Shown: positions 324 through 18,977 of the stretch, one piece after another
How the letters are laid out: each line of letters starts with the position of its first letter
Numbering within the stretch: position 1 is the first letter of the stretch
Virus record (IMG/VR): IMGVR_UViG_3300005512_000004
DNA from: an uncultured virus (IMG/VR IMGVR_UViG_3300005512_000004)
Lineage: Duplodnaviria > Heunggongvirae > Uroviricota > Caudoviricetes
Length of the DNA stretch: 64,000 nt
Direction: 5' to 3' (one strand)
The notes under the pieces: model-generated
Seen by the model: the letters and a program-made list of their open reading frames with translations, nothing else
Databases searched by the model: none
What the model was told of the DNA's origin: nothing
Program-made: the position numbers and the translations under genes

Positions 324-372
324 AGCGAGCTCCTATTCTGCGCGAATCGCGCGGTGTGTTCTAGGACTGCTT

Positions 373-402
373 ACTTATGACGTAATATGCGCGTTTTTTG
401 CG
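373..402 (-). promoter_or_regulatory. leftward promoter-like motif copy
   Basis: Minus strand CGCAAAAAAC-GCGCATATTA-CGTCATAAGT; same spacing as the other copies; near-identical to 5542-5571. Confidence 0.7.
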
Positions 403-489
403 CTCGCGTCGTGCTTTGTGAGACTCGATAGCGCAGACACATCAGTCCGTGGTAATGTGGTGGGTCAGTGACGTACGAGGAAATATGTA

Positions 490-1539
490 ATGCGAGACTA
501 CAAACGCGAGTACCAAAACTATCATGCGCAGCCCGAGCAGAAGCGTAATAGGGCAGCGCGTAACTTGTGGAATCGTCGCCTTAAGGGCAAGGTGCCTCCA
601 GGTAAGGAGATCGATCACCGACGCCCGCTAGGGAACGGAGGCAGCAACGATCGTAACAACATTCGTTTCCGGAGCATCTCCGCAAATCGCGCAGACAAGT
701 CCGCTGTAAAGACGGCAATGTGGTCTGCGTTTGAGGACGAGATGGCCAAGATCGCGGGGGAGATTGACGAGGACGCCTTCAAGCGTATGAGTCAGCAAGT
801 TCGAAGAGGCGATATTGTTAGTTACATGCAACACGGCGCCGACAAAGAGAACTTGAAAGATCTTGCGATGACGAGCCTCGTCTCCAAGCCGATCTCAAAA
901 GTAACAGGTTCCCCGTACTCACACACGGGTATCGTGTCCCAAGTCCTCCCAGATGGGCGGATCGAGGTCTTCGATAACTTCGAGGGCGCTGAAGGCCGAG
1001 GCGTACGTAGGTCATATCTCAACGACACGGCTACCTCTACGTCTTTCAATATCAAGCGTCCGCGCGTAGCTCCATACGTGGCAAGCGCCGCGGCGGATGC
1101 CGCAGAAGGCGCTATCGGAAACAGCGATTACAGCAAAGCTGATCTCCTCAGCATGGCTCCTCAAGAGCTTTCACGGAACGTCACAGGAAGTGATAGTAAG
1201 GTCTCGAGGGCTGCGCGTCGTGTAACGGGCCTAGGGTCGAAGATACGTGGCGCGGTCCAGAACTGTGATCCTGCAACGGGCGTATGTTCGTACCTACCCA
1301 TACACGCCTACGGAGAAGCTATGGGAGGTAAACAAAAAGCTACGACCACACTGCTCGGATCGGGGCTAAAATATGAGGGCCCGACCACCGCATCTCCCGC
1401 CATGTTACAAGCGAGCGACGCGATGGATAGTATCTTCGACTACTCGCCGAAGAACCGGAACACCTCCGCTGTCACTCAGGGAGTGAAACTCCTGCGCGAC
1501 GAAGGAGTCTCTCGATTAAAGAAACTCCTTCGTCGATAA
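490..1539 (+). CDS. HNH-type nuclease domain fused to permuted papain-like (YiiX/YebB-type NlpC/P60) hydrolase, K-x-A tagged
   Basis: N-term GKEIDHRRPLGNGGSNDRNNIR..SANR (HNH-like). Linker KTA-MWSAFEDEMA-KIA. Then RRGDIV...YSHTGIV...VCS (His before Cys, i.e. permuted order). Confidence 0.65.
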   Translation: MRDYKREYQNYHAQPEQKRNRAARNLWNRRLKGKVPPGKEIDHRRPLGNGGSNDRNNIRFRSISANRADKSAVKTAMWSAFEDEMAKIAGEIDEDAFKRMSQQVRRGDIVSYMQHGADKENLKDLAMTSLVSKPISKVTGSPYSHTGIVSQVLPDGRIEVFDNFEGAEGRGVRRSYLNDTATSTSFNIKRPRVAPYVASAAADAAEGAIGNSDYSKADLLSMAPQELSRNVTGSDSKVSRAARRVTGLGSKIRGAVQNCDPATGVCSYLPIHAYGEAMGGKQKATTTLLGSGLKYEGPTTASPAMLQASDAMDSIFDYSPKNRNTSAVTQGVKLLRDEGVSRLKKLLRR

Positions 1540-1642
1540 GAGCGGCGAGCGCGTCTAACGGAAGGTACTCCGCGACCACACGCAGCAACGGAAGTATGAT
1601 GGCGACGAGGCTATACACCCTGCCGATAAGTAGCAGTATCAT
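1472..1642 (-). CDS. small hydrophobic protein (56 aa)
   Basis: AGGAG RBS before ATG at 1642, directly after the stop of 1645..2301. Hydrophobic N-terminus MILLLIGRVYSLVAIILPLL. Confidence 0.55.
   Translation of the reverse strand: MILLLIGRVYSLVAIILPLLRVVAEYLPLDALAALIDEGVSLIERLLRRAGVSLPE
1497..1535. terminator. 16-bp-stem inverted repeat in the overlap of two convergent genes
   Basis: cgacgaaggagtctct-cgattaa-agaaactccttcgtcg (one mismatch). No clear U-tract. Confidence 0.45.
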
Positions 1643-1644
1643 GT

Positions 1645-2301
1645 TCACTCCTGCGAGAGCAGTTGTGGGATAGGCGAGCTCGCGCGCCATGGGTACGTCT
1701 CCGTGAAAATTTTCTCGGCCTCGCGTTTTGTAAGGCCTTCCAGCGTGAGGCACCCGAGGCCGAGCGCGAGGCACTCGACCACGATGGAGCCCTTCACCTC
1801 CTGTAGACTTCCGTAGGTGTCTGCTCGGCTGACCCACTTGGGGGGAAGATCGCTGACCTCCACGTGGATTTTTCCGGAGTCATCCCCTTCGGGAGGGCGC
1901 AGGCCCGCGCGGGTCACGAGGGATAGGGCGATGCGGAAGGCCTCTGCCTCTGGCGCGCGAAGGCAGCTGCCCGCAGCCAGGCAGAGTGCGGCGTACGCCT
2001 CCTGCTGACTGAACCGCCCAGCGTAGACGCCGTAGGCGGCACCCTTGATGATGGCCTTCGCCCACGTTGTGAGCGGGAGATCCGTGGCCGCCTCCAAGCC
2101 CACCGCGAAGCGGAAGCCGAGATCCGCCGCGCTCGCGTCCTTCGCGAACGCGACAAGCGACGCGACGGTCTCGATGTTCTGGTGGAGCTTGCGCAGCGAC
2201 ACGTCGGTCAAGGGGCGTGTGTGCTCGAGGAGCGCGCCGAGCCTAGGGTCGAGGTTGAGTGTGCTGATGCGCTCGTCGAGGTTGAATTTTTGCTTACGCA
2301 T
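1645..2301 (-). CDS. hypothetical protein (218 aa)
   Basis: AAAGG RBS, promoter motif at 2351-2380 and leader hairpin at 2317-2329. Confidence 0.8.
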   Translation of the reverse strand: MRKQKFNLDERISTLNLDPRLGALLEHTRPLTDVSLRKLHQNIETVASLVAFAKDASAADLGFRFAVGLEAATDLPLTTWAKAIIKGAAYGVYAGRFSQQEAYAALCLAAGSCLRAPEAEAFRIALSLVTRAGLRPPEGDDSGKIHVEVSDLPPKWVSRADTYGSLQEVKGSIVVECLALGLGCLTLEGLTKREAEKIFTETYPWRASSPIPQLLSQE

Positions 2302-2350
2302 ATTAGATACCTTTCACCGCAGGTCGCGGGGGTGTGAGTGGAAGGTACTG

Positions 2351-2380
2351 TATTATCACAAGCGCGCGCGCTATTTTGCG
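2351..2380 (-). promoter_or_regulatory. leftward promoter-like motif copy
   Basis: Minus strand CGCAAAATAG-CGCGCGCGCT-TGTGATAATA followed by CAGTAC. Confidence 0.75.
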
Positions 2381-2596
2381 CTATTCATCGTCCTCGTCGT
2401 CCTCGTCATCGTAACACTCTAGGAGCTCTTCGAGAGAGATACGGTGTACGATAATCTCCTTACCTGTTAAGATGTCGCCCATCGTCTCTACGTACTGTAC
2501 GAGGATGTCAAGCAGCCCACGGTACCATGCAACGATGGCAACAATGCATACCGCACTGCCGATAGTGGTTAAGAGGGAAACTAGGGTGACTAACAT
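2381..2596 (-). CDS. small membrane protein with acidic tail (71 aa)
   Basis: GGAGG RBS before ATG 2596. N-terminal TM segment; C-terminus YDDEDDEDDE. Confidence 0.6.
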   Translation of the reverse strand: MLVTLVSLLTTIGSAVCIVAIVAWYRGLLDILVQYVETMGDILTGKEIIVHRISLEELLECYDDEDDEDDE

Positions 2597-3104
2597 AGGG
2601 CCTCCAAACAAGCACGTCGTTTCTCGACTGAAGCACGCTACACTATTACACGAGCTCTCGCCATGTCCTAGAGGGAAAGTGGGGGCGGTGATCTACGACC
2701 CTGAGTCGTATGCTATCGTGTCCGACGGGTACAATGGGCCACCTCGTAAGGGCGGGCAACTTTGCGGAGGAGACTGTTGCACACGTGACGAGCAGAAGAT
2801 CGCGTCTGGTACACACGGCGAGATTGGGTGTCATCACGCGGAGATGAACGCGCTGCTTAACGCGTTACGTCTAGGCCACAGCACGTTAGGTAAGCACATG
2901 ATTATCACATGTGAGCCCTGCTTAATGTGTGCTAAGATGATCCACCACGCAGGCATTTCCTCCGTGTTGTACTACGCTAGAGGGTATGCTACGTTTGACG
3001 GTGTTCAGTATTTGCGAGAACACATAAACGAGGAGAATGTACGTGTTTTACAGAGTGTTGATGCAGAAGAAGGCAGAGGCGAATTACCACAGCAGGTACC
3101 TTAG
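2586..3104 (+). CDS. dCMP deaminase (ComEB/T4 cd-like)
   Basis: S.C.R.KVGAVI, GYNG.P, HAEMNAL and PCLMC zinc-deaminase motifs. Start uncertain (GTG 2586 chosen). Confidence 0.9.
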   Translation: MTNIGPPNKHVVSRLKHATLLHELSPCPRGKVGAVIYDPESYAIVSDGYNGPPRKGGQLCGGDCCTRDEQKIASGTHGEIGCHHAEMNALLNALRLGHSTLGKHMIITCEPCLMCAKMIHHAGISSVLYYARGYATFDGVQYLREHINEENVRVLQSVDAEEGRGELPQQVP

Positions 3105-3522
3105 TAAGCAGGAGCGTGAGCGCGCATTTGACCAAGCCAACGCACGTCGCGCGTCTCGTAGCTTAGGCGGTAGCGAATCGCGAAACTTTGGTGGCGTCGC
3201 GGGGGCGGTAATGGGCGGTCTTGGCGGGCTTGCTACAGGAGGCACAGGCGCAGCTGGCCTCGGAGGCGCACTTATCGGTGGAGGGCTTGGGTACGGTATT
3301 GGTTATTTAGGAGATAAGGCGCGCGACAACCGCACTTTAGAGGCGAAACGTATCGCGGAGATGTCGCCCGAGAGTCGTGCACGTTTACTTGATCATAAGA
3401 GAGCACGTCGCCTCGAAAGAGAGGACTATGATCGCCAGTTCGAAGAACGCTTTGATAGGGCCTATACACACGAGCAGCTTCGTCAAATCAGAAGAGCGCA
3501 GCAGGGAGGCTATCGTGCCTAA
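3037..3522 (+). CDS. glycine-zipper protein, putative virion-internal
   Basis: GGVAGAVMGGLGGLATGG..GGALIGGGLGYGIG. N-terminal leader ends in LMQKKA. Confidence 0.65.
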   Translation: MYVFYRVLMQKKAEANYHSRYLSKQERERAFDQANARRASRSLGGSESRNFGGVAGAVMGGLGGLATGGTGAAGLGGALIGGGLGYGIGYLGDKARDNRTLEAKRIAEMSPESRARLLDHKRARRLEREDYDRQFEERFDRAYTHEQLRQIRRAQQGGYRA

Positions 3523-4126
3523 AATCAACCCACGCCGAACAACGGCATTCGATAACCACCCGGCACTAAAAGGCGGGCAGTCGCGTTTACCGGACGCGCT
3601 GCAAGCTAAGATCATCGGAAGCAAGCTCAAGAAGACTGCGGCACGTGACGAGCGCCCACGTGGTCAGCGTAGGGTAAGTATCGCGATGAATCAACGCCCC
3701 GTACGAGGCGCTGTGGCGCGGAGTATCATCGGTGCAGGCCTTGGGGCGAGTCTCGCGAAGGCTCGCGGGTCTAAGCAAGTAGGCAAGCACGCGCTTGTCG
3801 GCGCAGTAGTTATGCCGGCAGCACGAGAGCTTGAGCGTCGTGCGCGTAATAGGTACTACGGACTAGACGGTTCTGAGAAACTAAGCTCATTCGCTAAGAT
3901 TGCAGGCGACCTAGAGGGCCGTATGGCACGCAGACAGCTCACTGAGATCTGCGAAATGGCACAAGAGCTCCTCATGTATATGGGCGATGAAGAAGACCTG
4001 CACGAGTGGGTACAGAATAAGCTGACTACGATTCATGATCGTTTAAGTAGCGTCCACTCTTACGTCTCGTACGAGAAAAAGAACCCGCCCGTTATGCAGC
4101 CGCAAATGCTCGGAGCCGGTATATGA
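3515..4126 (+). CDS. multi-module putative virion-internal protein (K-x-A tagged)
   Basis: GGAGG + GTG 3515. Modules separated by LKKTAA and SSFAKIAG. C-terminal EGRMA..QL..I...A.EL..EWVQ.K module recalled from T4-like marine phage hypothetical proteins. Confidence 0.65.
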   Translation: MPKINPRRTTAFDNHPALKGGQSRLPDALQAKIIGSKLKKTAARDERPRGQRRVSIAMNQRPVRGAVARSIIGAGLGASLAKARGSKQVGKHALVGAVVMPAARELERRARNRYYGLDGSEKLSSFAKIAGDLEGRMARRQLTEICEMAQELLMYMGDEEDLHEWVQNKLTTIHDRLSSVHSYVSYEKKNPPVMQPQMLGAGI

Positions 4127-4506
4127 GCATAGAGTATCGAGGTCATACGTTCCCGGGCTATAACCAGCCTATACGTAACACGAGCTCGAGCAAGCACAAA
4201 AAGATGGTACTCGCGAAGAAGGGTGACCAGGTGAAGCTTGTGCGCTTCGGGCATCGTGACTACGGACACAATATTAGCCCAGAGCGCAAGGCGAACTACC
4301 TCAAACGCAGCGCTGGTATCCGCGATAAGAACGGTAACCTAACGAAAGATGACAAGTTCAGCGCGAACTATTGGGCTCGTAAAAAGCTTTGGCCTGCAGG
4401 GAAGCCTACACTGGCGGAGAAGACGTCCATGCTGCACAGCGAGTCTAACCTGCGTCTCCTTCAGGAGAAGATAGCGCACGCGCGTGGCTCCTTCGGCTAT
4501 CGCTGA
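4123..4506 (+). CDS. basic viral protein, DUF5754-like
   Basis: GYNQP..KKMVLAKKGDQVKLVRFG...KFSANYWARKKLW pattern. C-terminal EKTS..LQEKIA tag. Confidence 0.6.
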   Translation: MSIEYRGHTFPGYNQPIRNTSSSKHKKMVLAKKGDQVKLVRFGHRDYGHNISPERKANYLKRSAGIRDKNGNLTKDDKFSANYWARKKLWPAGKPTLAEKTSMLHSESNLRLLQEKIAHARGSFGYR

Positions 4507-5080
4507 ACGTACGCGTACGACGCGTGAGCTTGGGTCCGACTGCACAGACGTACTCAAGCGTATCATCACGTGGACGCAGTCTCAGAACCTCTACTATCTC
4601 GTGAAGGGCCATGTAGAGGCGACGATCGGGGCGCTAGATGATGTGCGTGTCGTTGACGTACAGCTTGTCATGTGTGATGGGAGACAGCGACGCGGGTACA
4701 CGACCAATAACGTGCGTTCTGTGATCGTGAAGCTCTCTAATGAGGGCGTCATCACCGTAGGCGTCGAGGTGATGTATGTCACGAGCGAGGTAATACACTT
4801 GGCAGGACACAAGAAAGCTAAAGAAAAAGATGATGAGCCCTGGTATGTTTACGTTGTGCGTTGCGCTGATGCTAGCCTATATTGTGGTGTCTCTAAGAAC
4901 GTAGAGAACCGCGTCAAAGAGCATAACGGGAACTGCCGTGGCGCGAAATACACGCGCTCACGCAGGCCCGTAACGCTCGTAAAGCAGTGGCGCGCTAAAG
5001 ATAAGTCGGACGCCTTCAAAGCGGAGAAGCGCTTTAAGAAGCTCACAAAGGCACGTAAAGAAGAGATCTGCTCGTCTTAA
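4484..5080 (+). CDS. GIY-YIG nuclease (UPF0213/YhbQ-like) with N-terminal extension
   Basis: WYVYVVRCADASLYCGVSKNVENRVKEHN..GAKYTRSRRPV. Start uncertain. Confidence 0.8.
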   Translation: MAPSAIAERTRTTRELGSDCTDVLKRIITWTQSQNLYYLVKGHVEATIGALDDVRVVDVQLVMCDGRQRRGYTTNNVRSVIVKLSNEGVITVGVEVMYVTSEVIHLAGHKKAKEKDDEPWYVYVVRCADASLYCGVSKNVENRVKEHNGNCRGAKYTRSRRPVTLVKQWRAKDKSDAFKAEKRFKKLTKARKEEICSS

Positions 5081-5118
5081 CTATCATCGAGCCGATGGTG
5101 CCCAATCACCGACTCTAT

Positions 5119-5140: not shown

Positions 5141-5148
5141 CTTAACTC

Positions 5149-5463
5149 TTAGCCTTGCGCGCGGAGCTCTGCGAGCTCACGCTCCAGCTCTTGGATGCGG
5201 CGCTCCTTCTTCACCTCCTCGAGCTTGGCGAGGGTGGCCTTGCTGTAGGGCGCGGGATCCGCGCTACGGGGAGCGAAGAAGACGTAGCCGTCTTTGCCCT
5301 GATGGCGGAAGGAGAACCCCGCGTGAACAATGTGCTCGATCTCGTCAGCATGATTGCTGACGAACAAGTTGACGTCGATGGTCATGGGCGCCGAGTCCTT
5401 GTACTGAACGAAGGCCACGAGCTTCCCTTGGGCGGCTTTGATGATGTTGCTGTCAATGCTCAT
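5149..5463 (-). CDS. hypothetical protein (104 aa) with C-terminal coiled coil
   Basis: AGGAGCTCGCTATG start context identical to that of 66..323. Confidence 0.75.
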   Translation of the reverse strand: MSIDSNIIKAAQGKLVAFVQYKDSAPMTIDVNLFVSNHADEIEHIVHAGFSFRHQGKDGYVFFAPRSADPAPYSKATLAKLEEVKKERRIQELERELAELRAQG

Positions 5464-5541
5464 AGCGAGCTCCTTTGTCTGCGCGGTTCGCGCTGTGAAG
5501 TAGTCCGTATGCGAGGTAGTACGCACTGTCTTGGACTACTT

Positions 5542-5571
5542 ACTTATGACGTAATATGGGCGTTTTTTGCG
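5542..5571 (-). promoter_or_regulatory. leftward promoter-like motif copy
   Basis: CGCAAAAAAC-GCCCATATTA-CGTCATAAGT; 29/30 identical to 373-402. Confidence 0.7.
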
Positions 5572-5603
5572 CTTACGTAGCAGTACGCGTACTATCATCG
5601 AAA

Positions 5604-5677
5604 TGGGCCCGTTGGGGATTGAACCCAAGACCACCCGTTTATGAGACGGGGGCTCTAACCAACTGAGCTACAGGCCC
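5604..5677 (-). tRNA. tRNA with CAT anticodon, most likely tRNA-Ile2 (lysidine type); CCA not encoded
   Basis: GGGCCTG/CGGGCCC acceptor stem, AGCTCAGTTGGTTAGAGC D-arm, CCCGT-CTCATAA-ACGGG anticodon arm, GGTTCAATCC T-loop. A73 and C4:G69/C5:G68 pairs are typical of TilS substrates. Confidence 0.9.
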
Positions 5678-5722: not shown

Positions 5723-6100
5723 TTACGCGGTAAAGCGCGCGGCGCGCTCGGCGCGCTCCTGCTCACGCTCAGCGCGCTCCGCGGCACGCGCGGCACGATC
5801 CTGCTCACGCTCAGCGCGCTCCTGATCACGCTCGGCGCGCTCAGCCTTGCGCTCCTCACGATCCGCCTTGCGCTCCTCACGCTCCAAGCCGTGGTCCTCG
5901 ATTTGCGACTCGAGCTCCATGATGCGGAGCTTTCGCTCGAGGGGGGCGATGAGCATGCGCTCGGTCTCCTGCTCACGCATCTCTGCGCGCAGCGCCTTGA
6001 GGGCATCATGAAGGAGGCCAAGGGCCTCCACGACACATGGCGTTGCTGCGGCCACAAAAGCGTTGCGCATCGCTACGCGGGGGTCGGTGTAGTTGTCCAT
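5723..6100 (-). CDS. coiled-coil protein with heptad E/R/A repeats
   Basis: AAAGGAG RBS. ERAERDQ/ERAEREQ/DRAARAA repeats from ~21-bp DNA repeats. Confidence 0.75.
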   Translation of the reverse strand: MDNYTDPRVAMRNAFVAAATPCVVEALGLLHDALKALRAEMREQETERMLIAPLERKLRIMELESQIEDHGLEREERKADREERKAERAERDQERAEREQDRAARAAERAEREQERAERAARFTA

Positions 6101-6150
6101 AGGGACTCCTTTATTGGTGTGCACAAATCGTGCGTTGTTTGTGGGTACCG

Positions 6151-6180
6151 TATTATCACAGCAATACGCTGTTTTTTGCG
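6151..6180 (-). promoter_or_regulatory. leftward promoter-like motif copy
   Basis: CGCAAAAAAC-AGCGTATTGC-TGTGATAATA then CGGTAC. Confidence 0.75.
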
Positions 6181-6183
6181 TTT

Positions 6184-6723
6184 TCAGAAGCCGAAGTTAG
6201 CCCCCGATGTAGCCTTCTTACGTTGCTCTTCCTCGAGGAAGTCGCAATCGATGCGAATGTCGATGTCGGGGGTATCATCGCTCGCCTTTAGTTGGAGCGT
6301 CGCGATGGAGGGCTGTGCCCAGATGACCGCTGCGTCGGTGTCATTCTGGTCGACACGGTCGTGCGTGCCGTATTTTTCCGTGAGCTTCTTGACAATTACC
6401 TTCAAGAAGTCGCCGCCTCCGCCGAACTGACGTACGAACTTCGAGTCGTACGTGTAGAGGATGCGTGTGACGCGACCGCCGGTTGTCAGGACCAGCATCT
6501 TTTTTATGTTCGCGACGGGCTTCCGAAATGTTGTTAAAAGAACACCATCACGCTCGATGACGTGGCCGTGCTTGCCAAGGGCGCGTTTAGCACTCTTCAG
6601 TGAGTCACCGAACTTGACGATATCGGTGAGTCGCTTGAACTTACTGCCTTTGCAGGAACTGTCCTGCGCGTGTGCTGTAAAGGCTGTGAGGGAGATGAGG
6701 GCTGTCAGAAGAAGTCGTTTCAT
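6184..6723 (-). CDS. secreted/periplasmic protein
   Basis: AAAGGA RBS; Sec signal MKRLLLTALISLTAFTAHA-QD. Confidence 0.8.
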   Translation of the reverse strand: MKRLLLTALISLTAFTAHAQDSSCKGSKFKRLTDIVKFGDSLKSAKRALGKHGHVIERDGVLLTTFRKPVANIKKMLVLTTGGRVTRILYTYDSKFVRQFGGGGDFLKVIVKKLTEKYGTHDRVDQNDTDAAVIWAQPSIATLQLKASDDTPDIDIRIDCDFLEEEQRKKATSGANFGF

Positions 6724-6791
6724 ACGATTCCTTTGTGCGTGTGTGTGCATGTGCACGGTTAAATGCCACAACTCGTGGCGCTTGGGTACAT

Positions 6792-6821
6792 TATTATCGC
6801 GGAATTGCTCCGCGTTTTGAG
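6792..6821 (-). promoter_or_regulatory. leftward promoter-like motif copy
   Basis: CTCAAAACGC-GGAGCAATTC-CGCGATAATA then ATGTAC. Confidence 0.7.
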
Positions 6822-6826: not shown

Positions 6827-7192
6827 TCAGTAGTAGAGCGCCCAGCGCGTGTCGCTCTCTGGCGTACACGTCGCGATTTGCGCAAACCGCGCTCTTGTCT
6901 CCTGCGGGATACCTTGCTCCCGCATGGCTTGTAGTGTAAAGGCGAGCTGCTCCGCAGAGCTGAGCCCCTCCTCTATGTTTGGACGTCGAAACCCAAGAGC
7001 GTCAAGCTCTTGAGTAATGGATTCGCGCATGCGAGAGTCCATACCTCGAGGATCAACTCGACCCTCGCGGACTCTCCCGACAAACTGGTTCTCCACGTCC
7101 TGTGGAGAGGGCAACCACTGTGTGACACGATGGTCGCCGTCAAAGCCCGCATAGCGGACTTTGTTATATAGGTCGGATCTCTTTACCTGCAT
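6827..7192 (-). CDS. hypothetical protein (121 aa)
   Basis: AGGAGG RBS; promoter motif upstream. Confidence 0.75.
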   Translation of the reverse strand: MQVKRSDLYNKVRYAGFDGDHRVTQWLPSPQDVENQFVGRVREGRVDPRGMDSRMRESITQELDALGFRRPNIEEGLSSAEQLAFTLQAMREQGIPQETRARFAQIATCTPESDTRWALYY

Positions 7193-7224
7193 AGTACCTC
7201 CTTGTGTACGTGTGAAAGGTACTT

Positions 7225-7254
7225 CGTTATCACAAGATTAGCGCATTATTTACC
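7225..7254 (-). promoter_or_regulatory. leftward promoter-like motif copy
   Basis: GGTAAATAAT-GCGCTAATCT-TGTGATAACG then AAGTAC. Confidence 0.7.
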
Positions 7255-7452: not shown

Positions 7453-7480
7453 GGGTACTCCTAACTATCATCGGGTAAAT

Positions 7481-7589
7481 GAGCTAAACATAGCCTACTT
7501 GGACTTGCAAGGTCCATCCATCCTCCGAACCTCGGCTCGTTTGACGTTCCCTTGCGGGGCGTCAATCTATTATACCAAAGTTCGGAGGA
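7481..7589 (-). ncRNA. candidate structured RNA / leader
   Basis: Minus-strand hairpin TTGACGCCCC-GCAA-GGGAACGTCAA, second hairpin TGGAC..GTCCA, and a 10-bp inverted repeat at 7521-7530/7580-7589. Confidence 0.35.
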
Positions 7590-7597
7590 GAATTGTC
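7568..7597 (-). promoter_or_regulatory. leftward promoter with TGnTATAAT extended -10
   Basis: GACAATTCTC-CTCCGAACTT-TGGTATAATA aligns with the motif spacing. Confidence 0.6.
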
Positions 7598-8075
7598 ATC
7601 TTCGCGCGAGACGCATGTAGCGCTGCACGTCTGACCCGTACTCCCTCGCTGCCCGCTTACACTGCCACCCGCCATTATAGTGACAGATGCGGCCCTTCTT
7701 CTTCATCCAATACCGGATGGAGATGAGGCTCCGGTGCGCCGCGTAATATAAATCACGCAGGTCCGCACAACTCTCGTTGTGCGTCGTGCGGGTTGCTGGG
7801 TCGTACATGATTGGCTTAACCTGCCATATTCCGCATGCCCCTTGTCGGGACACCGGGAAATAGTCAGTGTACGGGATCCCGAAACGAGACTCTCTCATCC
7901 CGATAGCGACGAGCATCCTCACCTCTGATGACGTCGCTCCATGGTCGTGTGCCACCTCTGCGATAGCCCGCGCTACCGCTTCGAGATGTGGTCGGTGCGT
8001 TTTTGCGAGGCTCTCGCCCCCTGGGTCGGTAGCGAGGAGGGCGAAGATCATACGCAAAATAATGTAAAACGACAT
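7596..8075 (-). CDS. SLT/lysozyme-like lytic transglycosylase with N-terminal hydrophobic segment
   Basis: LVAIGMRESRFG (catalytic E-S), SRQGACGIWQV, HYNGG motifs. Confidence 0.8.
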   Translation of the reverse strand: MSFYIILRMIFALLATDPGGESLAKTHRPHLEAVARAIAEVAHDHGATSSEVRMLVAIGMRESRFGIPYTDYFPVSRQGACGIWQVKPIMYDPATRTTHNESCADLRDLYYAAHRSLISIRYWMKKKGRICHYNGGWQCKRAAREYGSDVQRYMRLARR

Positions 8076-8115
8076 AACGTCTCCTTCTGCACAAGTCGTG
8101 CGTGATGTGATACTT

Positions 8116-8145
8116 TCTTATCACAGAATCTATCGAAAATAGGAC
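8116..8145 (-). promoter_or_regulatory. leftward promoter-like motif copy (weaker upstream box)
   Basis: GTCCTATTTT-CGATAGATTC-TGTGATAAGA then AAGTAT. Confidence 0.6.
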
Positions 8146-8150
8146 TTAGT

Positions 8151-8792
8151 ATGAGAGAGCACGTGTATAGAGCGTTTCACGATGAGCTGCAGAAGATCGC
8201 GACGTTTAACGCGCAGCAAATACAGCAGCAGGGTCAGCAGATGATCGCGCAAGGCCAGCTGATGGTACAGAACCCGCTCGGCGCGGCTACGCAGATACGG
8301 CAACAGAGCATGGTGGCCGCGCGAAACCCTCACACGAGTCCACAGCAAGCTGCACAACTAACGGGGCTCGCGGCCGCGACCATGCCAAAGACCGCGAGCA
8401 TTGTGCTTGTTGACGCGTTCCTTGATGAGTTCGAGAAGTGTGCGGGGCGCCAGCTAACCTACGACGAGTACGAGTACCTTCTTAAGCAGGCAAACTTTAT
8501 GTCCTCGTTATCAAATCTCGCGGCCAAGGCAAGTACCGCAGTAAAGGCGCCAATGGCGACGGCACAAAATGCGGCTGCCTCCTTTATGACGTCCGCAGGA
8601 GGTCAGATGATGATGCACAACCCCGCCGCAGCAACTATGGCTATGGGTCAGCAGCTCGCTGGGGGTGTCGGACAAGCGCTCGCAGGTAAGGCCGCGGGCG
8701 GACTTGTCGGTGCGGGCGCTAAGATGCTCCCCCAAGGGTTCGCTCAGACAGCCGCGCAATACGGGTCACAGATGGTCAACGCTGTGGTGTAA
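8151..8792 (+). CDS. Gln/Ala/Gly-rich putative virion-internal protein with four K-x-A sites
   Basis: AFHDELQKIA, PKTAS, AFLDEFEKCAG, LLKQANF. Confidence 0.7.
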   Translation: MREHVYRAFHDELQKIATFNAQQIQQQGQQMIAQGQLMVQNPLGAATQIRQQSMVAARNPHTSPQQAAQLTGLAAATMPKTASIVLVDAFLDEFEKCAGRQLTYDEYEYLLKQANFMSSLSNLAAKASTAVKAPMATAQNAAASFMTSAGGQMMMHNPAAATMAMGQQLAGGVGQALAGKAAGGLVGAGAKMLPQGFAQTAAQYGSQMVNAVV

Positions 8793-10836
8793 ACTCGCAC
8801 GCGCCCCCAACACAGCTCGCTTCCTGCAAGAGCTGTGTCGTGTCTGACCCCTCTTTTAGTAGGGTGTAGTCAGGAGAAACCCACGCATCGCGGAGCTCCT
8901 GCCACTGCTTTGCCGCGGCGCGCTTCTTATCTGCGAGCGGGTCATTTTCGTCGATGTTCTCTACGATCTCTTGGAAGGGAGGCTGTTCGTACACGTAGTC
9001 GCCGAACATACTGAGCAGAGAGACTCCAGTAAGATGCTCGCGCTCCTGCCAGAGCTTCTCGCACACGCCTTCCCACTCGCCTTCTTGGACGAGGATTGTG
9101 TTCGAGACGTTGTGGCGTAGCCCCTCGACGCCGCGATCAAGGTGCGTTCCGCACTCGATCCAGTTTGTTTGCGTGAGCGTAATCATATCGATGAAGCTCT
9201 CGGCGGTGAGGTCTTTACGGTAAAGGGTGTCGTTACCTGTCGCGTCTACAGGAAAGGAGATCACGAGGTCCTCTGTGCCAGGAGCAGACCACACGCTCTT
9301 GCTTACGGCGGCGGGCATGTGTTCTTTAAAGAACTGCCCGACGGGGTTCTGCGCAGACACTTGCACGTTCCGTATATAGCGACGCGCATACTCCGCGTGA
9401 ATACCTGACGTACAACCAAGTAAGACGGCCGCGTTGCCCGAAGGCTTAACGCACGTGGTGCGCGTGGCCGCATTGATGCCTAGCTCGGAGGCGAAGCGCT
9501 TATTTGTCTTCCGAACGAGCTTAGCGGCCTCACGTTGCCATGTGGGGTCGAAGGCGATCTCTGGGCAGTTCGCCATGCCTGTCAGCGACACGCCGATGAG
9601 CGACTCGCGCTCGAGGATATGCCGCGACACGCTGGGTAGATAGTCCGAGTGCGTGTACCCGGCCTGCGCTGTCGCGAGTATGGTAGCTTGCTGTACAGCG
9701 TCAAAGGCGTCCTCTTTACTCTTAAAAAGTGCGCAGTTAACCTCGACAAGGTTACACGCCTGCCACCCGCTTACGTACTCGTACCCGATCCCTTCGTAGT
9801 ATTCGCGGTCTTCGAGCATATCGACCGTGTACTCGGAGACGACATCGCCACACTCATCTGTGATCAAGACGGGCGCCATACCAATTTCTACGCAGGGGTT
9901 ATATAAAAACTCCTTACTTTTCGAGAAGATAAAACCTGGCTCCCCGTATTGCTTAGTAGCAGAGAAGATCGCCTCATAGACACTCTTCTCTGTGTCGTCT
10001 GTGATGACCGCGCTGATATTCGCTCGCGCGCGCTGCGGGTTATCCTGCCACCACGTTCCGGTCTTAGCGCTGATCATACCCTCATCGTCAGGGCTAAAGA
10101 GCGCAATCGAGGCCGCGCGACGTACACCGCCGCTCAGAACCGCATCAGACGCGTACATAACGAGGTCGAAGCAGTCCACACTCGTGAGACGTCCGTCTCG
10201 AGAAGATAGCAACGCTTCTACCTTATCAAGGCAGACGCGTAGAGGCTCGGGCCCAGGCGCCTTACCACCCACGCTTAGAGGTGCGCCCTTAGCTCGGATA
10301 GACGTATAGACGAATGTCGGGCGCGTGGCATAGAGGCCCATGCGTGCGTTGACCAAATGACGTAGCGCCTCTGCCCACCCCTCGATGGTATCCTCGATTA
10401 TGTGCTCAGTGCGCGGTAGCGTCGCCCACTCATCTTGTGAGATGAGCGAGGGCATACGTGCGATATGATGCGTCTGCACGCTGAAGCCAACACCGCAGCC
10501 ACAGAGCAGTAACCAAAACGCCTCAGAGAAGAAGCTCGGACGATCACAGTACGAGGTAACGCAGTTGTAAATACGCCAGTTTTTCTTGAGCGTCGGCTCT
10601 CCGCCGAACTGACGTGCGCGCTGAGATGATAGTACACGCTTCTCTTTCTCCGCTTTAGATGCGGCCTCTAATAAGCCAGCGACGACAGGGCCCCTGTCTG
10701 CGTATTTACGGAGGTGCATGTCGAGCACGCGATCACACGCCTCATTCCATGTTTCACGGCGACCTAAGTCGCTGTTATAGCGTGCATATTTCTGAGTAAA
10801 GTTGAACTCAGCAAGACTCTTTCGTACGATATCCAC
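8776..10836 (-). CDS. nrdJ: class II (adenosylcobalamin-dependent) ribonucleotide reductase, monomeric RTPR-like
   Basis: KYARY..RRETW, YNC, SGGVRRAA, QRARANIS, GEPG, NPCVEI, ACNL.E, TCVKPSG and C-terminal CVGGAC. Confidence 0.85.
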   Translation of the reverse strand: MDIVRKSLAEFNFTQKYARYNSDLGRRETWNEACDRVLDMHLRKYADRGPVVAGLLEAASKAEKEKRVLSSQRARQFGGEPTLKKNWRIYNCVTSYCDRPSFFSEAFWLLLCGCGVGFSVQTHHIARMPSLISQDEWATLPRTEHIIEDTIEGWAEALRHLVNARMGLYATRPTFVYTSIRAKGAPLSVGGKAPGPEPLRVCLDKVEALLSSRDGRLTSVDCFDLVMYASDAVLSGGVRRAASIALFSPDDEGMISAKTGTWWQDNPQRARANISAVITDDTEKSVYEAIFSATKQYGEPGFIFSKSKEFLYNPCVEIGMAPVLITDECGDVVSEYTVDMLEDREYYEGIGYEYVSGWQACNLVEVNCALFKSKEDAFDAVQQATILATAQAGYTHSDYLPSVSRHILERESLIGVSLTGMANCPEIAFDPTWQREAAKLVRKTNKRFASELGINAATRTTCVKPSGNAAVLLGCTSGIHAEYARRYIRNVQVSAQNPVGQFFKEHMPAAVSKSVWSAPGTEDLVISFPVDATGNDTLYRKDLTAESFIDMITLTQTNWIECGTHLDRGVEGLRHNVSNTILVQEGEWEGVCEKLWQEREHLTGVSLLSMFGDYVYEQPPFQEIVENIDENDPLADKKRAAAKQWQELRDAWVSPDYTLLKEGSDTTQLLQEASCVGGACEFTPQR

Positions 10837-10873
10837 AATCGTTTCCTTCCTAGATATGAGAGCTAAACAAAAG

Positions 10874-10910
10874 AACAGAGGATCGACAACTCGTCAATCC
10901 CGATCCTGTT
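10874..10910 (-). promoter_or_regulatory. leader hairpin upstream of nrdJ with GAGTT pentaloop and downstream T-rich run
   Basis: Minus strand GGATTGAC-GAGTT-GTCGATCC, extended by AACAG/CTGTT, followed by CTTTTGTTT. Confidence 0.55.
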
Positions 10911-10940
10911 ACGCCCAGTAGATCCGGTTAGGTGTTAGGT

Positions 10941-11162
10941 TTAGTTAGATGAAGGTTTCGTGAATGCGTTGTAGATGACGGCACCTGCGGCGCCAGCCAC
11001 CAAGACCTTCAGTCCGATGTTTGCCGCGTCAGCGACTGAGAAGCCGGGGGCGGCGGGATCCACCGTCGCGGTGACGCGGGCGGCAGTTTGCGCGGAGAAC
11101 GCAGAGGTGGCGGTGGTGGTGGCGGTAGTGTGAGTAGCGGTAGTGGTAGGTTTCGTGTTCAT
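10941..11162 (-). CDS. small Thr-rich protein with C-terminal TM segment
   Basis: GGAG RBS; TTTATHTTATTTAT; IGLKVLVAGAAGAVIY. Confidence 0.7.
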   Translation of the reverse strand: MNTKPTTTATHTTATTTATSAFSAQTAARVTATVDPAAPGFSVADAANIGLKVLVAGAAGAVIYNAFTKPSSN

Positions 11163-11208
11163 GGTGTCTGTACTCCGAGGAAGGTTGCAATGTGTGGTGG
11201 GCGTACTG

Positions 11209-11238
11209 TATTATCACAGCTAACCTCTAGTTTTTGAC
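11209..11238 (-). promoter_or_regulatory. leftward promoter-like motif copy
   Basis: GTCAAAAACT-AGAGGTTAGC-TGTGATAATA then CAGTAC. Confidence 0.75.
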
Positions 11239-11249
11239 ATGGTGGGCCG

Positions 11250-14154: not shown

Positions 14155-14162
14155 AGACACCT

Positions 14163-14468: not shown

Positions 14469-14587
14469 ACATCGCAGACATTCACAAAGAGCTCGTACAG
14501 CTCCGTACTCACGTTACCGAGATCCGAAACATCATCAAGCAACTCACGAAAGAGCGGGGTCTGAAGATCCCGGGGATTAACTCATGA
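14465..14587 (+). CDS. small coiled-coil protein (40 aa)
   Basis: GTGA overlap with the upstream stop; IHKELVQLRTHVTEIRNIIKQL heptads. Confidence 0.5.
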   Translation: MNIADIHKELVQLRTHVTEIRNIIKQLTKERGLKIPGINS

Positions 14588-14859: not shown

Positions 14860-15160
14860 AGAAGCTCTGTTGCGCATCGAGCACAAGCTCGATGTTTTAA
14901 TAGCGTACCTGCATGGCATGACCAATGTCCCTCCACAAGACATACCGAAGCCGTTACCGGGCTTTGGTGGAGAGACAGATGGACGCTGCCCGATTACGGG
15001 TACCAAGATCCATTATCAATACTCGCCCCAGACGGGTGCGATTATGCGCGCGGACGGGTTACTCACAGGTATACCTAAATCACTCCCAGTACCTGAGCCT
15101 CCTGCGTGGCTTAAACGCGATACCGCAGGCGACACAACGGAGAACGCAGATGAGCAATAA
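14852..15160 (+). CDS. hypothetical protein
   Basis: Overlapping operon ORF; LLRIEHKLDVL coiled coil and CPITG. Confidence 0.65.
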   Translation: MTEEALLRIEHKLDVLIAYLHGMTNVPPQDIPKPLPGFGGETDGRCPITGTKIHYQYSPQTGAIMRADGLLTGIPKSLPVPEPPAWLKRDTAGDTTENADEQ

Positions 15161-15467
15161 TTTACTGCCTGTAGGCGGATGGGTACTCATTCGGCCTGAC
15201 GCGCGTGTTGCGCGTACGGCGTCGGGTATCATTATCCCAGAGAGCGTGACTGAGTACGGACACACGGCAGGAACGGTGATCTCGGCGAGCGAAACGTACA
15301 CGCTACGCGATAAGAACGTTACAGCTAGAGTACCTGTCTCGGCAGGGCAACGCGTGATGTACCGAGATTACTTGAAAGAGCTCGAAACAGTCGACGTAGA
15401 CGGGGAGCCCTGCTGTTTTATCTACGTGGAGGATATTGTCCTTATCTTGGAGGACGATCATGTCTGA
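15150..15467 (+). CDS. groES: co-chaperonin GroES (Cpn10)-like protein
   Basis: LLPVGGWVLIRP, mobile loop RTASGIIIPES, GTVIS, V.AG.RVMY, DGE..FI..EDIV. Confidence 0.85.
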   Translation: MSNNLLPVGGWVLIRPDARVARTASGIIIPESVTEYGHTAGTVISASETYTLRDKNVTARVPVSAGQRVMYRDYLKELETVDVDGEPCCFIYVEDIVLILEDDHV

Positions 15468-15654
15468 GACCAAGACTAAAAAGATGATCATCAGCACGAC
15501 GCCAGCGATGCACGCGCGTATTCAGGCCAGCGCTGAGCGTGAGAAGGTCAGTATGGCTGAATACGTACGAGAGGCCGTACAGCAACGACTCGATCTACAA
15601 AGAAGTCTATACGCAGATGAGCTCGTATCAAAGGTGGTTGAGAGTGAGTACTAG
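15460..15654 (+). CDS. ribbon-helix-helix DNA-binding protein (CopG/Arc-like)
   Basis: KKMIISTTPAMHARIQASAEREKVSMAEYVREAV pattern. Confidence 0.75.
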   Translation: MSETKTKKMIISTTPAMHARIQASAEREKVSMAEYVREAVQQRLDLQRSLYADELVSKVVESEY

Positions 15655-16084
15655 AGAGCCGCTTATTTACCCAATGCCTGATGGGTATGAGCTTGGCGTG
15701 CTCGTGCAGCAGATCGCGGAGCAAGACTCGCCTCGCGCGATCATACTCGATTTCCTGCAACGCACGATCCTCGTACACCCGCCAGCAGAGGACGGGATAG
15801 AGCGCTCCGAGTTCACTGTAGACTCTCTTGCGTTCTTGCTGACGTCCGTAGAGCTCGAACACACGGATTTGTCACTAGAGGATGCTCTTACCGAGTTCGC
15901 AACAGACACTAACCAACTTTGGGTGTGTGCGCATCCGGACCTAAAAGACGTGCTGATGCACGATGGAGAGATACTATGGACCAAGATCGTAGAAAGAGAC
16001 TACCTGCTCCTGGTAACGCGCTCATCCGACCAGACGTGGCGAGTCATAGGCATGTCACACAACCTACTCAAGCAAGACACCTGA
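15644..16084 (+). CDS. hypothetical protein
   Basis: Operon ORF; start uncertain. Confidence 0.6.
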   Translation: MSTREPLIYPMPDGYELGVLVQQIAEQDSPRAIILDFLQRTILVHPPAEDGIERSEFTVDSLAFLLTSVELEHTDLSLEDALTEFATDTNQLWVCAHPDLKDVLMHDGEILWTKIVERDYLLLVTRSSDQTWRVIGMSHNLLKQDT

Positions 16085-16190
16085 TACGCGTACATATCGG
16101 AGAAGATACCTCATCGCTTGGGTACCGCTACAACGATGACCTCGAGATCGGTGTCTCGATCGACACCAACACTTTGTTAGGATTTTTTAA

Positions 16191-16613
16191 ATGAAGAATA
16201 CCGTTTTAAGTAAGCTCACCGACCTCTCTGTCGAGGCGTACGCTGTCCCTGTAGAGACAGACGACACGCTCGTCGTGCTCGGTCGCATTAAAGCCTCCAC
16301 CGACCCCGAGTTTAAGAACGTCGAGAACAGGCTGATCTCTTTCATCGAGAAGGCGCTCGTGCGCGCGGAGCTCCCGGAGTTCAAAGATGACGACAAGCTA
16401 CGCTTACGTTTCTCTCGCCTCTGGCTTTTGAAAGACAGCTCACTGCGTTACACGTGGGACTTCACATTTAAGGGCGATCTCACTCTCCTAGACGCGTTGT
16501 TAGACGGCATCAAGGTACCGCCTCTTACACTGACGCGTACAGAGGAAGTCAGTACGCAAACCGTTAAGCCTAAGAAGGGCGCTGTGCGTCCTGTACGTGT
16601 AGGGTCGTTATGA
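16191..16613 (+). CDS. hypothetical protein
   Basis: AGGA RBS; coupled to the next gene. Confidence 0.7.
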   Translation: MKNTVLSKLTDLSVEAYAVPVETDDTLVVLGRIKASTDPEFKNVENRLISFIEKALVRAELPEFKDDDKLRLRFSRLWLLKDSSLRYTWDFTFKGDLTLLDALLDGIKVPPLTLTRTEEVSTQTVKPKKGAVRPVRVGSL

Positions 16614-17185
16614 GCACTGCGCACACGCCAGCGAAGTACAAAATTGAGATACACTTCAATAAGAACCGTACTACGTCAGGCCCAAACACAGCTGCGGTCA
16701 GCATCTTCGAGTCGGGCGCGCGCCTTAACGGAGAGGGTGATGAGCTTGTGTACCTGTGTAACGAGCGAGATAAGGGGCTCGCGCTCGGTATGCCTGGCGT
16801 AAAAGATCAACAGGTGATTCGCGGCTACGGCGGTTGTGGCGGTATCATCCCCGGGAACAACCTACGTGGGGGTGTGGCGCTCTGCCCTAACTGCAAGGCC
16901 ACGATCAGCAGCGAAGGTCTCACGTCTACCTTGCTTGTAAATCTCACGACTAAAAAGCTCGCGCTTTTGGTGACGGACATCTTCCGCAAGCTCAACTCGG
17001 ACGCAGACGTGTACATCAAGTACCACCCTACCGACATACGCAGTGTTGCGCTGAATAACCCTAACAGCCTGGATAAAGGTCGTATGTCTCGTGGGCTCAC
17101 GATCTACCCCATCTTCAACATCATCAAAGACACCTCGGGCGGCGCAACGCTCGAAGGGCGATTTGAGGCTTTATTTTCCGCATGA
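16610..17185 (+). CDS. hypothetical protein with probable Zn-binding cysteines
   Basis: YLC...GCGG...CPNC. Confidence 0.7.
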   Translation: MSTAHTPAKYKIEIHFNKNRTTSGPNTAAVSIFESGARLNGEGDELVYLCNERDKGLALGMPGVKDQQVIRGYGGCGGIIPGNNLRGGVALCPNCKATISSEGLTSTLLVNLTTKKLALLVTDIFRKLNSDADVYIKYHPTDIRSVALNNPNSLDKGRMSRGLTIYPIFNIIKDTSGGATLEGRFEALFSA

Positions 17186-17439
17186 AGAGCATTAAAGAGA
17201 TCATGATCAGGCACGCCGATCTAGAGATCCAACGTGCCGCGGTAGAAGAGTGTATTGCGTTAATACGCTCAGAGTTCTCATCAAGAGACGGGATACCGCC
17301 CAACAAAATCGTGCTTACAGAAGACGGTAAGCGCATCCCCTCTAACACTTTCACAACCGTCATTGACGACATCACACAACGTATCTTAGGGCCGATTCTC
17401 ACCGAGATGTCTTCCCTAGAGGAGAAAAAGATCAAATGA
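17182..17439 (+). CDS. hypothetical protein
   Basis: ATGA-coupled ORF. Confidence 0.65.
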   Translation: MKSIKEIMIRHADLEIQRAAVEECIALIRSEFSSRDGIPPNKIVLTEDGKRIPSNTFTTVIDDITQRILGPILTEMSSLEEKKIK

Positions 17440-17744
17440 GCGACAAGACAACACAGCCACAAGAGCTCACCATCGAGATGCTTGCTTCGGATATTCGCCA
17501 GCTCGCGTACGAGGTCAACAACATCGCCATCACAACCAGCGCGCTCGTTGAGCTGTTAAGCGTCGACAAGGAAAAGCTAAAAAATGTCGCGCAGCAGATC
17601 TTCGAGACCGCTGTCGCTAACGCGGCAAAGCAGTCTGACGAGCCCGAGGAGACTGCGGAGAAGAGCAACCCGCTCTCTCCCGAGAACGTCAACGCCTCAG
17701 GCCCAGCGTCTCATCCCGAGAACGCTGTCATCTTCGGTGGCTAA
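17436..17744 (+). CDS. hypothetical protein (coiled coil, acidic tail)
   Basis: GGAG RBS, ATGA coupling, ends HPENAVIFGG. Confidence 0.65.
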   Translation: MSDKTTQPQELTIEMLASDIRQLAYEVNNIAITTSALVELLSVDKEKLKNVAQQIFETAVANAAKQSDEPEETAEKSNPLSPENVNASGPASHPENAVIFGG

Positions 17745-18922
17745 AGCCCTCGCGTACGCGCCCATACACTGTCAGGCAGCGTCATGATCTCCGACGCCTG
17801 TAACTCGAGCTTATCGAGCGCGAACTTCGACGTGTTGGTCGTCTGTCCCTCACGAGCGTAGCGCGTAATACCATTGACCAGGTCGGCTACGGTATCGCCC
17901 GGCTCCTCTACCCACGACGCGGCGAGCGAGAGCGCGAAGACGTCTTTGTCTCCTATGGGAGATAGGTAGTTCTTGAGGAGCATACCGTACGCTGTCGCAG
18001 CGTGCTCCATCGTAGGATCGCTTGTCCACTTCGTAGATCGAGCGTTAGACCATGCAGATGAGAAGTGCTGTACGAAGCCGCCCGTCTGTTTGAAGAGCTC
18101 GCCTACGCGCGTAATCACGCTGCTGACCTCTCCGCGATGGCGAACGCGCTTCAGGTAGCTGTCTGCTGCGAGCATCTGCATATTGGCGCAGAGTTGTCTG
18201 AACATCAGCAGGTTCATTGCGATCGACGTAGAGCCGTCATCGCGCAAGCTCCAACCGCGCCCAACTTGGAACGTGTCGTCCTTCCCCCACTTGTAGTCCG
18301 ACGGGTTAATCTCTTGTCGGAGTAACTCGCGAAAAGACAGCTGCGTGGTGTTGGGGTCGTAGATGTACGTACCTTTTGCGTCGGGTGCAGTCTGGCGTGC
18401 GATCGTGCGTAGCACATCGTTAGCGTACACATCGGGGTACGTCTCCGGGACGATGCCGAAGATAACACGCTCTCCCTCTGTGCCCGTCCTTGTGCGTACT
18501 TTCACCTTACCATCTTGCTGTAGAAGGGCGCGAGTGTTGTGTGCGCGAAGATCTACAGCTACGCCTGTAAGATAAGAATACGCGCCTCTAGGAGCGATAC
18601 CGCGCAGGAGCGCTCTATACGCGTCTTGTGTGGCTTTGTGATCAACGTCACCAAAGGTGATTGTCATGTCCTCGTCCACTTTAATATCGCGAATATTAAT
18701 CGTCGTGCTCTCTCGATCTTCGGCCTCAATCAGCCCTGCCAAACTAGCAGCAAGCTCTGGGGCGGAGGGGAGTGCGTTAAAATCTTCGATCTGTTTACGA
18801 AGTAGAGACTGTTGTCCTGGGCTGATGGTATAGTTCCCGCTCCCTAGTACAGATTGAGACGCGGCAAACCCGCGTATGGTGGGCGGCGCCTTAATCGCCA
18901 TAACATTGTTAACTGCGTTCAT
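17741..18922 (-). CDS. DUF932/DUF945-like protein
   Basis: DDGSTSI..FRQLCAN..RVRHRG motif and a C-terminal TVADLVNGIT helix; GAAAGGA RBS before ATG 18922. Confidence 0.7.
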   Translation of the reverse strand: MNAVNNVMAIKAPPTIRGFAASQSVLGSGNYTISPGQQSLLRKQIEDFNALPSAPELAASLAGLIEAEDRESTTINIRDIKVDEDMTITFGDVDHKATQDAYRALLRGIAPRGAYSYLTGVAVDLRAHNTRALLQQDGKVKVRTRTGTEGERVIFGIVPETYPDVYANDVLRTIARQTAPDAKGTYIYDPNTTQLSFRELLRQEINPSDYKWGKDDTFQVGRGWSLRDDGSTSIAMNLLMFRQLCANMQMLAADSYLKRVRHRGEVSSVITRVGELFKQTGGFVQHFSSAWSNARSTKWTSDPTMEHAATAYGMLLKNYLSPIGDKDVFALSLAASWVEEPGDTVADLVNGITRYAREGQTTNTSKFALDKLELQASEIMTLPDSVWARTRGL

Positions 18923-18977
18923 GGTTATTCCTTTCGCAGTAAAGCAGTTTAGAGTAGCGTAACTCACGCGAACACTC

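Follow-up and report, generated by a model that had tools for sequence, protein, structure and literature searches.

The window analysed here is a 64,000-nucleotide (nt) stretch of the uncultured, marine-type virus IMGVR_UViG_3300005512_000004 (Caudoviricetes), and the element in question is a small hairpin with a five-base loop that recurs eight times in the 5′ leaders of its leftward genes. The G+C content of the window is 55.5%. From 1 to 19.6 kb, genes of the two orientations alternate, and beyond 19.6 kb nearly all long open reading frames (ORFs) run rightward. The gene map is derived from ORFs, with the 11–14 kb part backed by conservation in related contigs. The class II ribonucleotide reductase gene nrdJ is located at 8776–10836 on the minus strand, and the other identifiable genes encode a dCMP deaminase, a GIY-YIG nuclease, a GroES-like protein, and tail and baseplate proteins. 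One tRNA-Met is present in the window.

Structure of the leader hairpins

A preliminary description had reported eight hairpins with loops of the form GANYY on the minus strand, and all eight are present at their positions. Five of them are situated 2–9 nt from the Shine–Dalgarno sequence (SD) of the gene that follows. GCGC-GAUUC-GCGC (340–352) lies 5 nt before the SD of ORF 66–323, and GCGC-GAACC-GCGC (5481–5493) lies 5 nt before the SD of ORF 5149–5463, in a cassette paralogous to the 340 cassette. CCGC-GACCU-GCGG (2317–2329) is located 22 nt past a GATAAT hexamer and 3 nt before the SD of ORF 1645–2301, GCAC-GAUUU-GUGC (6121–6133) 18 nt past GATAAT and 9 nt before the SD of ORF 5723–6100, and GCAC-GACUU-GUGC (8089–8101) 15 nt past GATAAG and 2 nt before the SD of ORF 7596–8075. 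The remaining three hairpins carry the loop GAGUU and lie 23–31 nt from the SD. These are GCCAC-GAGUU-GUGGC (6765–6779), 13 nt past GATAAT and 31 nt before the SD of ORF 6184–6723; GCGU-GAGUU-ACGC (18957–18969), 9 nt past GATAAA and 23 nt before the SD of ORF 17741–18922; and the tip of the nrdJ-leader hairpin. The latter is a structure of approximately 25 pairs (10859–10918, minus strand) with no promoter motif of its own. Its tip, previously given as 10880–10900, extends over 10879–10901 and comprises 9 pairs, 2 of them G·U, with just 3 Watson–Crick pairs adjoining the loop.

The seven short stems are purely Watson–Crick paired and form perfect inverted repeats, and the closing pair is C-G at seven sites and U-A at 18957. 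Loop position 2 is A in all eight hairpins. Positions 4 and 5 are always pyrimidines, both in these hairpins and in the two distinct orthologous loops described below. Overall, conservation extends to the C-G closing pair, to G1 and to Y4Y5, with U4U5 at five sites of this phage and in both orthologous loops. The predicted energies of the hairpins range from −3.1 to −6.8 kcal/mol, with −11.5 kcal/mol for nrdJ, and the minimum-free-energy (MFE) folds of the 110-nt upstream regions contain all eight. The earlier claim that the stems differ between sites yet always pair holds in 40 of 40 cells of the stem comparison, 11 of which are altered on both sides and none on one side alone; since the sites were picked as hairpins, this full pairing and these double-sided changes are partly circular. 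The stem variety with full pairing mainly argues against a fixed DNA half-site. In addition, the 340 and 5481 hairpins belong to paralogous cassettes with a common 19-mer and the same ribosome-binding site (RBS), and the 6121 and 8089 hairpins possess the identical stem GCAC/GUGC, so that the number of independent cases is lower than eight.

In both paralogous cassettes, the start codon lies within another small hairpin, GCUC-GCUAU-GAGC (318–330 and 5458–5470, minus strand). Just downstream of ORF 66–323, a 27-nt unit is tandemly repeated twice with 96% matches (window positions 5–59).

Promoter motifs and leader context

The motif GTGATAAYANAGTAC occurs in seven copies (at most two mismatches; 0.5 expected), all on the minus strand and ahead of leftward genes, and resembles an extended −10 promoter. 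In the motif scan, four copies are followed by a hairpin (2345–2359, 6145–6159, 6786–6800 and 8110–8124), and three have no hairpin downstream (7219–7233, 11203–11217 and 19608–19622). A repeated 19-mer, with two exact minus-strand copies (370–388 and 5539–5557) against 0 expected, is located upstream of the 340 and 5481 hairpins and is possibly a promoter of a different type. The proposed position of seven hairpins between a promoter motif and the RBS is thus borne out at the level of sequence motifs, with four after GTGATAAYANAGTAC, one after the weaker GATAAA and two after the repeated 19-mer. The hairpins start 9–22 nt past the hexamer and end 13–41 nt ahead of the start codon; assuming that transcription starts approximately 7 nt past the hexamer, the unpaired 5′ tails would measure approximately 3–16 nt. 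The leader sequence around the hairpins is rich in A and C and poor in G (16% G vs 27% for the strand), so that each hairpin constitutes an island of structure.

The core of GTGATAAYANAGTAC, CTGTGATAATACAG, is itself an inverted repeat. The opposite strand reads TGTATTAT, and the motif might therefore fire both ways in the divergent gaps 8076–8150 and 11163–11249. On their upstream side, the promoter motifs are adjoined by further minus-strand hairpins with A-rich loops (e.g. GCGC-AAAAAAC-GCGC) or G-initial pentaloops, found by the hairpin scan of the leaders at 389–403, 2368–2381, 6166–6181, 6158–6172 and 6798–6814. Furthermore, the 9-mer GATGATAGT is present in eight copies compared with 0.39 expected, five on the minus strand (5080–5088, 5591–5599, 7464–7472, 19032–19040 and 63303–63311) and three on the plus strand (10625–10633, 24178–24186 and 42656–42664). 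Four of the copies lie in leftward intergenic regions, and the 9-mer may be a second promoter class or some other signal.

Enrichment in the leftward leaders

A strict scan of both strands of the 64,000 nt, with at least four Watson–Crick pairs and the loop GANYY, gives 12 minus-strand and 3 plus-strand matches, and five of the minus-strand matches lie outside the leftward leaders. Those leaders were defined by hand as 15 regions with a total of 1,465 nt. They contain seven sense matches, whereas 500 dinucleotide shuffles average 0.116 and give at most 2, so that none of them reaches seven. The scan recovers seven of the eight hairpins and misses that of nrdJ because its fourth pair is U·G. 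The single antisense match in the leaders is the mirror of the 340 hairpin, a near-perfect palindrome that for this reason also scores on the plus strand. If the loop sequence is left free, these leaders contain 15 pentaloop hairpins, of which 7 have GANYY loops. When a C-G closing pair is required, eight matches are intergenic, and coding sequence retains a single antisense match and no sense match. An equal frequency in shuffled or coding sequence, the outcome set against the proposal at the start, is thus not seen. A wider G-N-N-Y-Y scan finds no additional hairpin with a base other than A at position 2 between a promoter motif and the RBS.

A covariance model was built from the eight hairpins and two orthologs. 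In its scan of the window, the eight leader sites score 16–21 bits (19.1 bits with the R1 model for 340, 16.7 for 2317 and 21.2 for 6121), and everything else in the 128 kb of searched strand scores at most 15.3 bits. The next scores are those of the 340 mirror (15.3), an intragenic sense site at 6879–6893 (15.2) and a plus-strand site at 15200–15214 (14.7). The search is circular for the eight sites, yet it shows that the remaining 126 kb of strand contain few hairpins of this kind. A scan of the window against Rfam at gathering thresholds gives no family for the hairpins, and its sole match is the tRNA at 5604–5677.

Conservation in related contigs

Four contigs from one metagenome scan (L021, L033, L037 and L040) were available for comparison. 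L021 represents the same phage with 99.85% identity, and no hairpin differs. The NrdJ identity to the window is 72% for L033, 84% for L037 and 83% for L040. In these three relatives, the tip of the nrdJ-leader hairpin is the same save for the loop, GCGUU in place of GAGUU, and the GTGATAAYANAGTAC promoter motif is conserved in relatives. The 8089 ortholog in L033 keeps the stem GCAC/GUGC, the promoter motif, the SD distance and loop positions 1, 4 and 5; the spacer between promoter and hairpin has diverged, and the loop GACUU has become GCAUU. In both orthologous hairpins, the stem, G1 and U4U5 are thus unchanged against a diverged flanking leader. Loop position 2 is C at both L033 sites. Such a change appears concerted, as would be expected from a co-evolving tag and a lineage-specific reader, with two sites to judge by. 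Regarding the GA..YY loop pattern proposed earlier, A2 and the two pyrimidines are found at all eight sites here, but the GA core does not extend to the orthologous loops, which read G-C-N-U-U. Because the relatives carry C at position 2, "GA" is specific to this phage and the wider rule is G-N-N-Y-Y. The leader of ORF 10941–11162 contains the promoter motif without a hairpin, both here and in L033, L037 and L040.

Across the relatives, the nrdJ hairpin of approximately 25 pairs contains an invariant U·G pair, two changes from G-C to G·U and one change from C-G to U-A. The changes from G-C to G·U are situated in the lower stem, and on the opposite strand the tip falls to three pairs. The conserved G·U pairs thus favour RNA on the sense strand, and in part they support the earlier view that selection acts on structure rather than on a DNA operator; the seven Watson–Crick stems do not discriminate between the two. 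Consequently, this strand test is informative for nrdJ alone, and the case for the other seven hairpins rests on position and loop asymmetry. Taken together, the symmetric stem changes, the asymmetric loop in the same orientation and the nrdJ G·U pairs favour a putative element that acts as a sense single strand. The long nrdJ hairpin may in its own right be a processing site, having an RNase III-type length, or a regulatory leader of the cobalamin-dependent reductase.

Beyond these contigs, close relatives were not found. GenBank phages gave no match to the window by megablast, and cultured phages gave none by tblastn with two late proteins. NrdJ has only distant matches among cultured phages (at most 45% identity) and nothing close in IMG/VR (at most 43%). 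No relative was recovered from IMG/VR with two other proteins, a three-sequence protein alignment or the conserved nrdJ-leader DNA pattern, nor from the GTDB genomes. The exact 16-mer promoter pattern occurs at 14 IMG/VR loci, none of which resembles the window, and these are therefore probably chance matches.

The differences between L021 and the window include two clusters, one at 5578–5591, a palindromic stretch beside the tRNA, and one at 10633–10638, inside nrdJ. These clusters could have arisen through misassembly or through a local inversion.

Proposed role of the hairpins

The explanation favoured here, with a probability of roughly 0.4, is that the hairpins are RNA tags on early-type messages, read through their loops, that control translation or stability and decay. 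The hairpins would be transcribed within the 5′ leaders of leftward genes that are probably early and served by host-type promoters. Each would fold as a stem of 4–9 bp under a five-base loop, in which the C-G closing pair, G1 and the pyrimidines at positions 4 and 5 are held, and position 2 would be fixed per lineage, as A in this phage and C in the relatives. The loop would then be read in trans by some factor, most likely a protein of the phage itself. The location of five of the eight hairpins 2–9 nt from the SD suggests that the translation or decay of these messages is controlled as a group. A more specific proposal, which is put forward tentatively, is that the hairpin serves as the address label of a post-transcriptional regulon, whose phage protein reads the loop and silences or protects the early messages as a set. 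The co-evolution of tag and reader in such a regulon would explain the A at position 2 of eight sites here and the C at both orthologs.

Several points weigh against the loop-read tag. Downstream of three of the seven copies of the promoter motif, no hairpin is present, and the transcription starts are inferred solely from such motifs. The two SD distances, 2–9 nt for five hairpins and 23–31 nt for three, do not fit a single steric mechanism. No RNA-binding match to Pfam or PHROG was found in the 50 ORFs scanned. The comparison of orthologs reached two of the eight hairpins in at most three relatives. The covariation in the nrdJ hairpin is weak, with two pairs altered on both sides among four sequences and a score reached by 63 of 500 shuffles. 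In the seven purely Watson–Crick stems, pairing alone does not tell RNA from DNA or show which strand is involved, and the antisense strand could gain terminal G·U pairs in four of the short stems. Finally, the 340/5481 and 6121/8089 pairs may be duplicates.

A passive role is a credible but rather unlikely alternative. The hairpin itself would slow decay or fix the fold of the leader before the RBS, and the loop pattern would be a by-product of stability or composition. The recovery of all eight hairpins in the MFE folds, the modest energies and the variable position relative to promoter and SD agree with such a role. Furthermore, G1 can pair with Y5 to give a stem of 5–6 bp with a triloop, and RNAfold picks this form for 340, 5481 and 18957. 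However, a passive hairpin should drift or take a standard stable tetraloop, and the restricted loop (G1, A2, Y4 and Y5 in 8/8, with G1, U4 and U5 kept in the orthologs) argues against a purely passive role. With 5′ tails of the inferred length, most of the hairpins would not be 5′-terminal stabilizers, and the leaders, already G-poor, need little insulation. As far as the accessible part of the source describes it (PMC9943677), RNase E of E. coli bypasses orthogonal stem-loops; a bare internal stem-loop shields poorly from this enzyme and bound proteins block it, although the host here may differ.

Somewhat less probable is a mixed set, in which the GAGUU hairpins (6765, 10880 and 18957) would belong to a GNGUU family, and the five SD-proximal hairpins would be a second kind or partly coincidental GC-rich hairpins. 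Three of the eight hairpins do fit the GNGUU rule as well, so the set may be mixed, and the two groups differ in their distance from the SD. C at loop position 4 or 5 in 340, 2317 and 5481 sets these apart from the others. Moreover, stable GNGUU hairpins with stems of 6–9 bp are also found on the sense strand within coding sequence, at 7047–7067 (minus strand), 15199–15215 and 17248–17270 (both plus strand). On the other hand, G1, A2, Y4 and Y5 are common to all eight hairpins and the C-G closing pair to seven, and all are situated in leftward leaders. Loop position 2 of the 8089 ortholog (GCAUU) shows the change also seen in the nrdJ GAGUU hairpin, so that the two groups are linked. In the coding sequence of the window, GNGUU hairpins number four sense and four antisense, which does not bear out a sense bias of such a family here.

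An element acting at the DNA level, either the operator of a dimeric regulator just past the promoter or an extruded hairpin like the promoters of the N4 virion RNA polymerase, is improbable. The seven stems are perfect inverted repeats that include a 13-bp palindrome at 340, the sites lie 9–22 bp past a −10-like hexamer in the classic operator position, and the stems are unchanged between orthologs. The window also contains a 2,827-amino-acid ORF with no assigned function (55044–63527, plus strand), which has no sequence match in Pfam, PHROGs or the PDB. Against an operator, the half-sites vary between sites but do so symmetrically, the asymmetric loop has the same orientation at all eight sites, and the nrdJ stem requires G·U pairs. 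The rules for N4 hairpin promoters, as far as given in the available part of the source, comprise a 3-nt loop, a 5′ G and 3′ A on the template strand, a G:C closing pair, a purine at −11 and +1C (PMC4496689), and they do not describe the hairpins of the window. Here the loops have five bases, and G1–Y5 pairing gives the triloop A-N-Y (sense) or R-N-U (template), not G-R-A. A virion RNA polymerase was not seen in the Pfam, PHROG and PDB sequence searches; the PDB search for a phage RNA polymerase covered three giant ORFs and gave no match.

Antitermination of the boxB kind, in which an N-type phage protein would bind the hairpin and RNA polymerase would read through terminators, is the least probable reading. 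In its favour are the pentaloop beginning with G-A on a short stem rich in G and C, its location past early-type promoters, the flexible position relative to promoter and gene, and the terminator-like hairpins between leftward genes. Against it, loop positions 4 and 5 are pyrimidines, with which a G·A-closed GNRA-like fold cannot form, and almost every short transcription unit has its own promoter, which leaves no obvious need for long-range read-through.

Other features of the window

A sigma-factor-like protein is encoded at 27827–28669 on the plus strand (PHROG 351, with weak Pfam matches to sigma-70 regions 3 and 4). Past a TATAAT hexamer, the 143-nt gap 7453–7595 (minus strand) contains several further hairpins, including UUGACG...CGUCAA around CCC-CGCAA-GGG, and may be a structured leader or a small RNA. 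Terminators for rightward transcription were also considered at the eight hairpin sites; two of them (338–354 and 6119–6135) pass a loose plus-strand filter, and their location is unsuited to this function.

Novelty and significance

The hairpins would belong to a known class of cis-acting elements, conserved-loop hairpins of phage leaders, and the variant described here appears to be new. A narrow literature search, with subscription journals outside its scope, yielded no account of leader hairpins of this kind. The main text of PMC9830547, the part of that source considered, contains the loops GAGUU, GCGUU, GACUU and GAUUU 0 times, and none of the seven pentaloop family names available there, out of ten, fits G-N-N-Y-Y.

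If a reader of the loop exists, loop and reader would form a new RNA–protein recognition pair that delimits a regulon of early genes in a phage lineage with no cultured relative and almost no annotated genes. Co-regulated early genes of metagenomic phages could then be recognized from sequence, and the pair could yield an orthogonal hairpin–protein tag like those of MS2, PP7 or boxB. The lineage-specific change of the loop provides a handle for finding such a reader through co-variation across relatives.

Comparison with known systems

The PeSL cassettes of T4-type phages have a terminator stem-loop directly ahead of an early promoter, according to the accessible part of the source (PMC4122927). 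The likeness consists of repeated cassettes of a small stem-loop and an early promoter between small genes, and hairpins in the window adjoin the promoters on the upstream side too. Unlike the PeSL terminator, the hairpin studied here is located 9–22 nt downstream of the −10-like hexamer, inside the leader. The N4 promoters resemble it in placing a small hairpin upstream of early genes, in which the stem varies and the loop and closing pair are conserved. However, they keep a fixed distance to +1 and a 3-nt loop with G and A on the template strand, as far as the available part of the source goes (PMC4496689), and the nrdJ hairpin needs RNA-type G·U pairs.

With ompA-type stabilizers, the hairpins have in common their location in the 5′ untranslated region of an mRNA. 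The ompA type is a 5′-terminal stabilizing stem-loop close to the mRNA 5′ end, whereas here the tails of approximately 3–16 nt would make the position non-terminal, and the loop is conserved. Translational operators beside the RBS include the targets of T4 gp43 and RegA, the coat-protein hairpins of MS2 and PP7, and the RNA stem-loops of Aca2. In five of the eight leaders, a small hairpin is likewise found immediately 5′ of the SD, and the shut-off of a group of early messages is conceivable; on the other hand, the SD is 23–31 nt away from three of the hairpins, and none of these operators shares the loop rule. The control of early messages by RegA and RegB in T4 follows a similar logic, with the difference that here the target would be marked by structure.

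The lambdoid boxB hairpin has a purine-rich loop with a GNRA-like fold closed by a G·A pair, and its partner boxA has the consensus YGCUCUUWA. The shared features are a short GC-rich stem (4–9 bp at the eight sites here), a five-base loop beginning with G-A, location in early-type leaders past promoters, variable stems and a loop that is, or here would be, read. The analogy to boxB drawn in the preliminary description nevertheless fails on the chemistry of loop positions 4 and 5 and on boxA. None of the 67 window matches to the boxA consensus (at most one mismatch) lies within 30 nt upstream of a hairpin. By eye, an arginine-rich N-like protein was not recognized among 13 leftward ORFs, and Pfam gave no match to one, with the 64-kb window covering part of a larger genome. 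Furthermore, two lambdoid sites serve long operons, whereas here eight sites would serve eight short units. The lambdoid boxB arrangement remains a model for how a reader of the loop could work.

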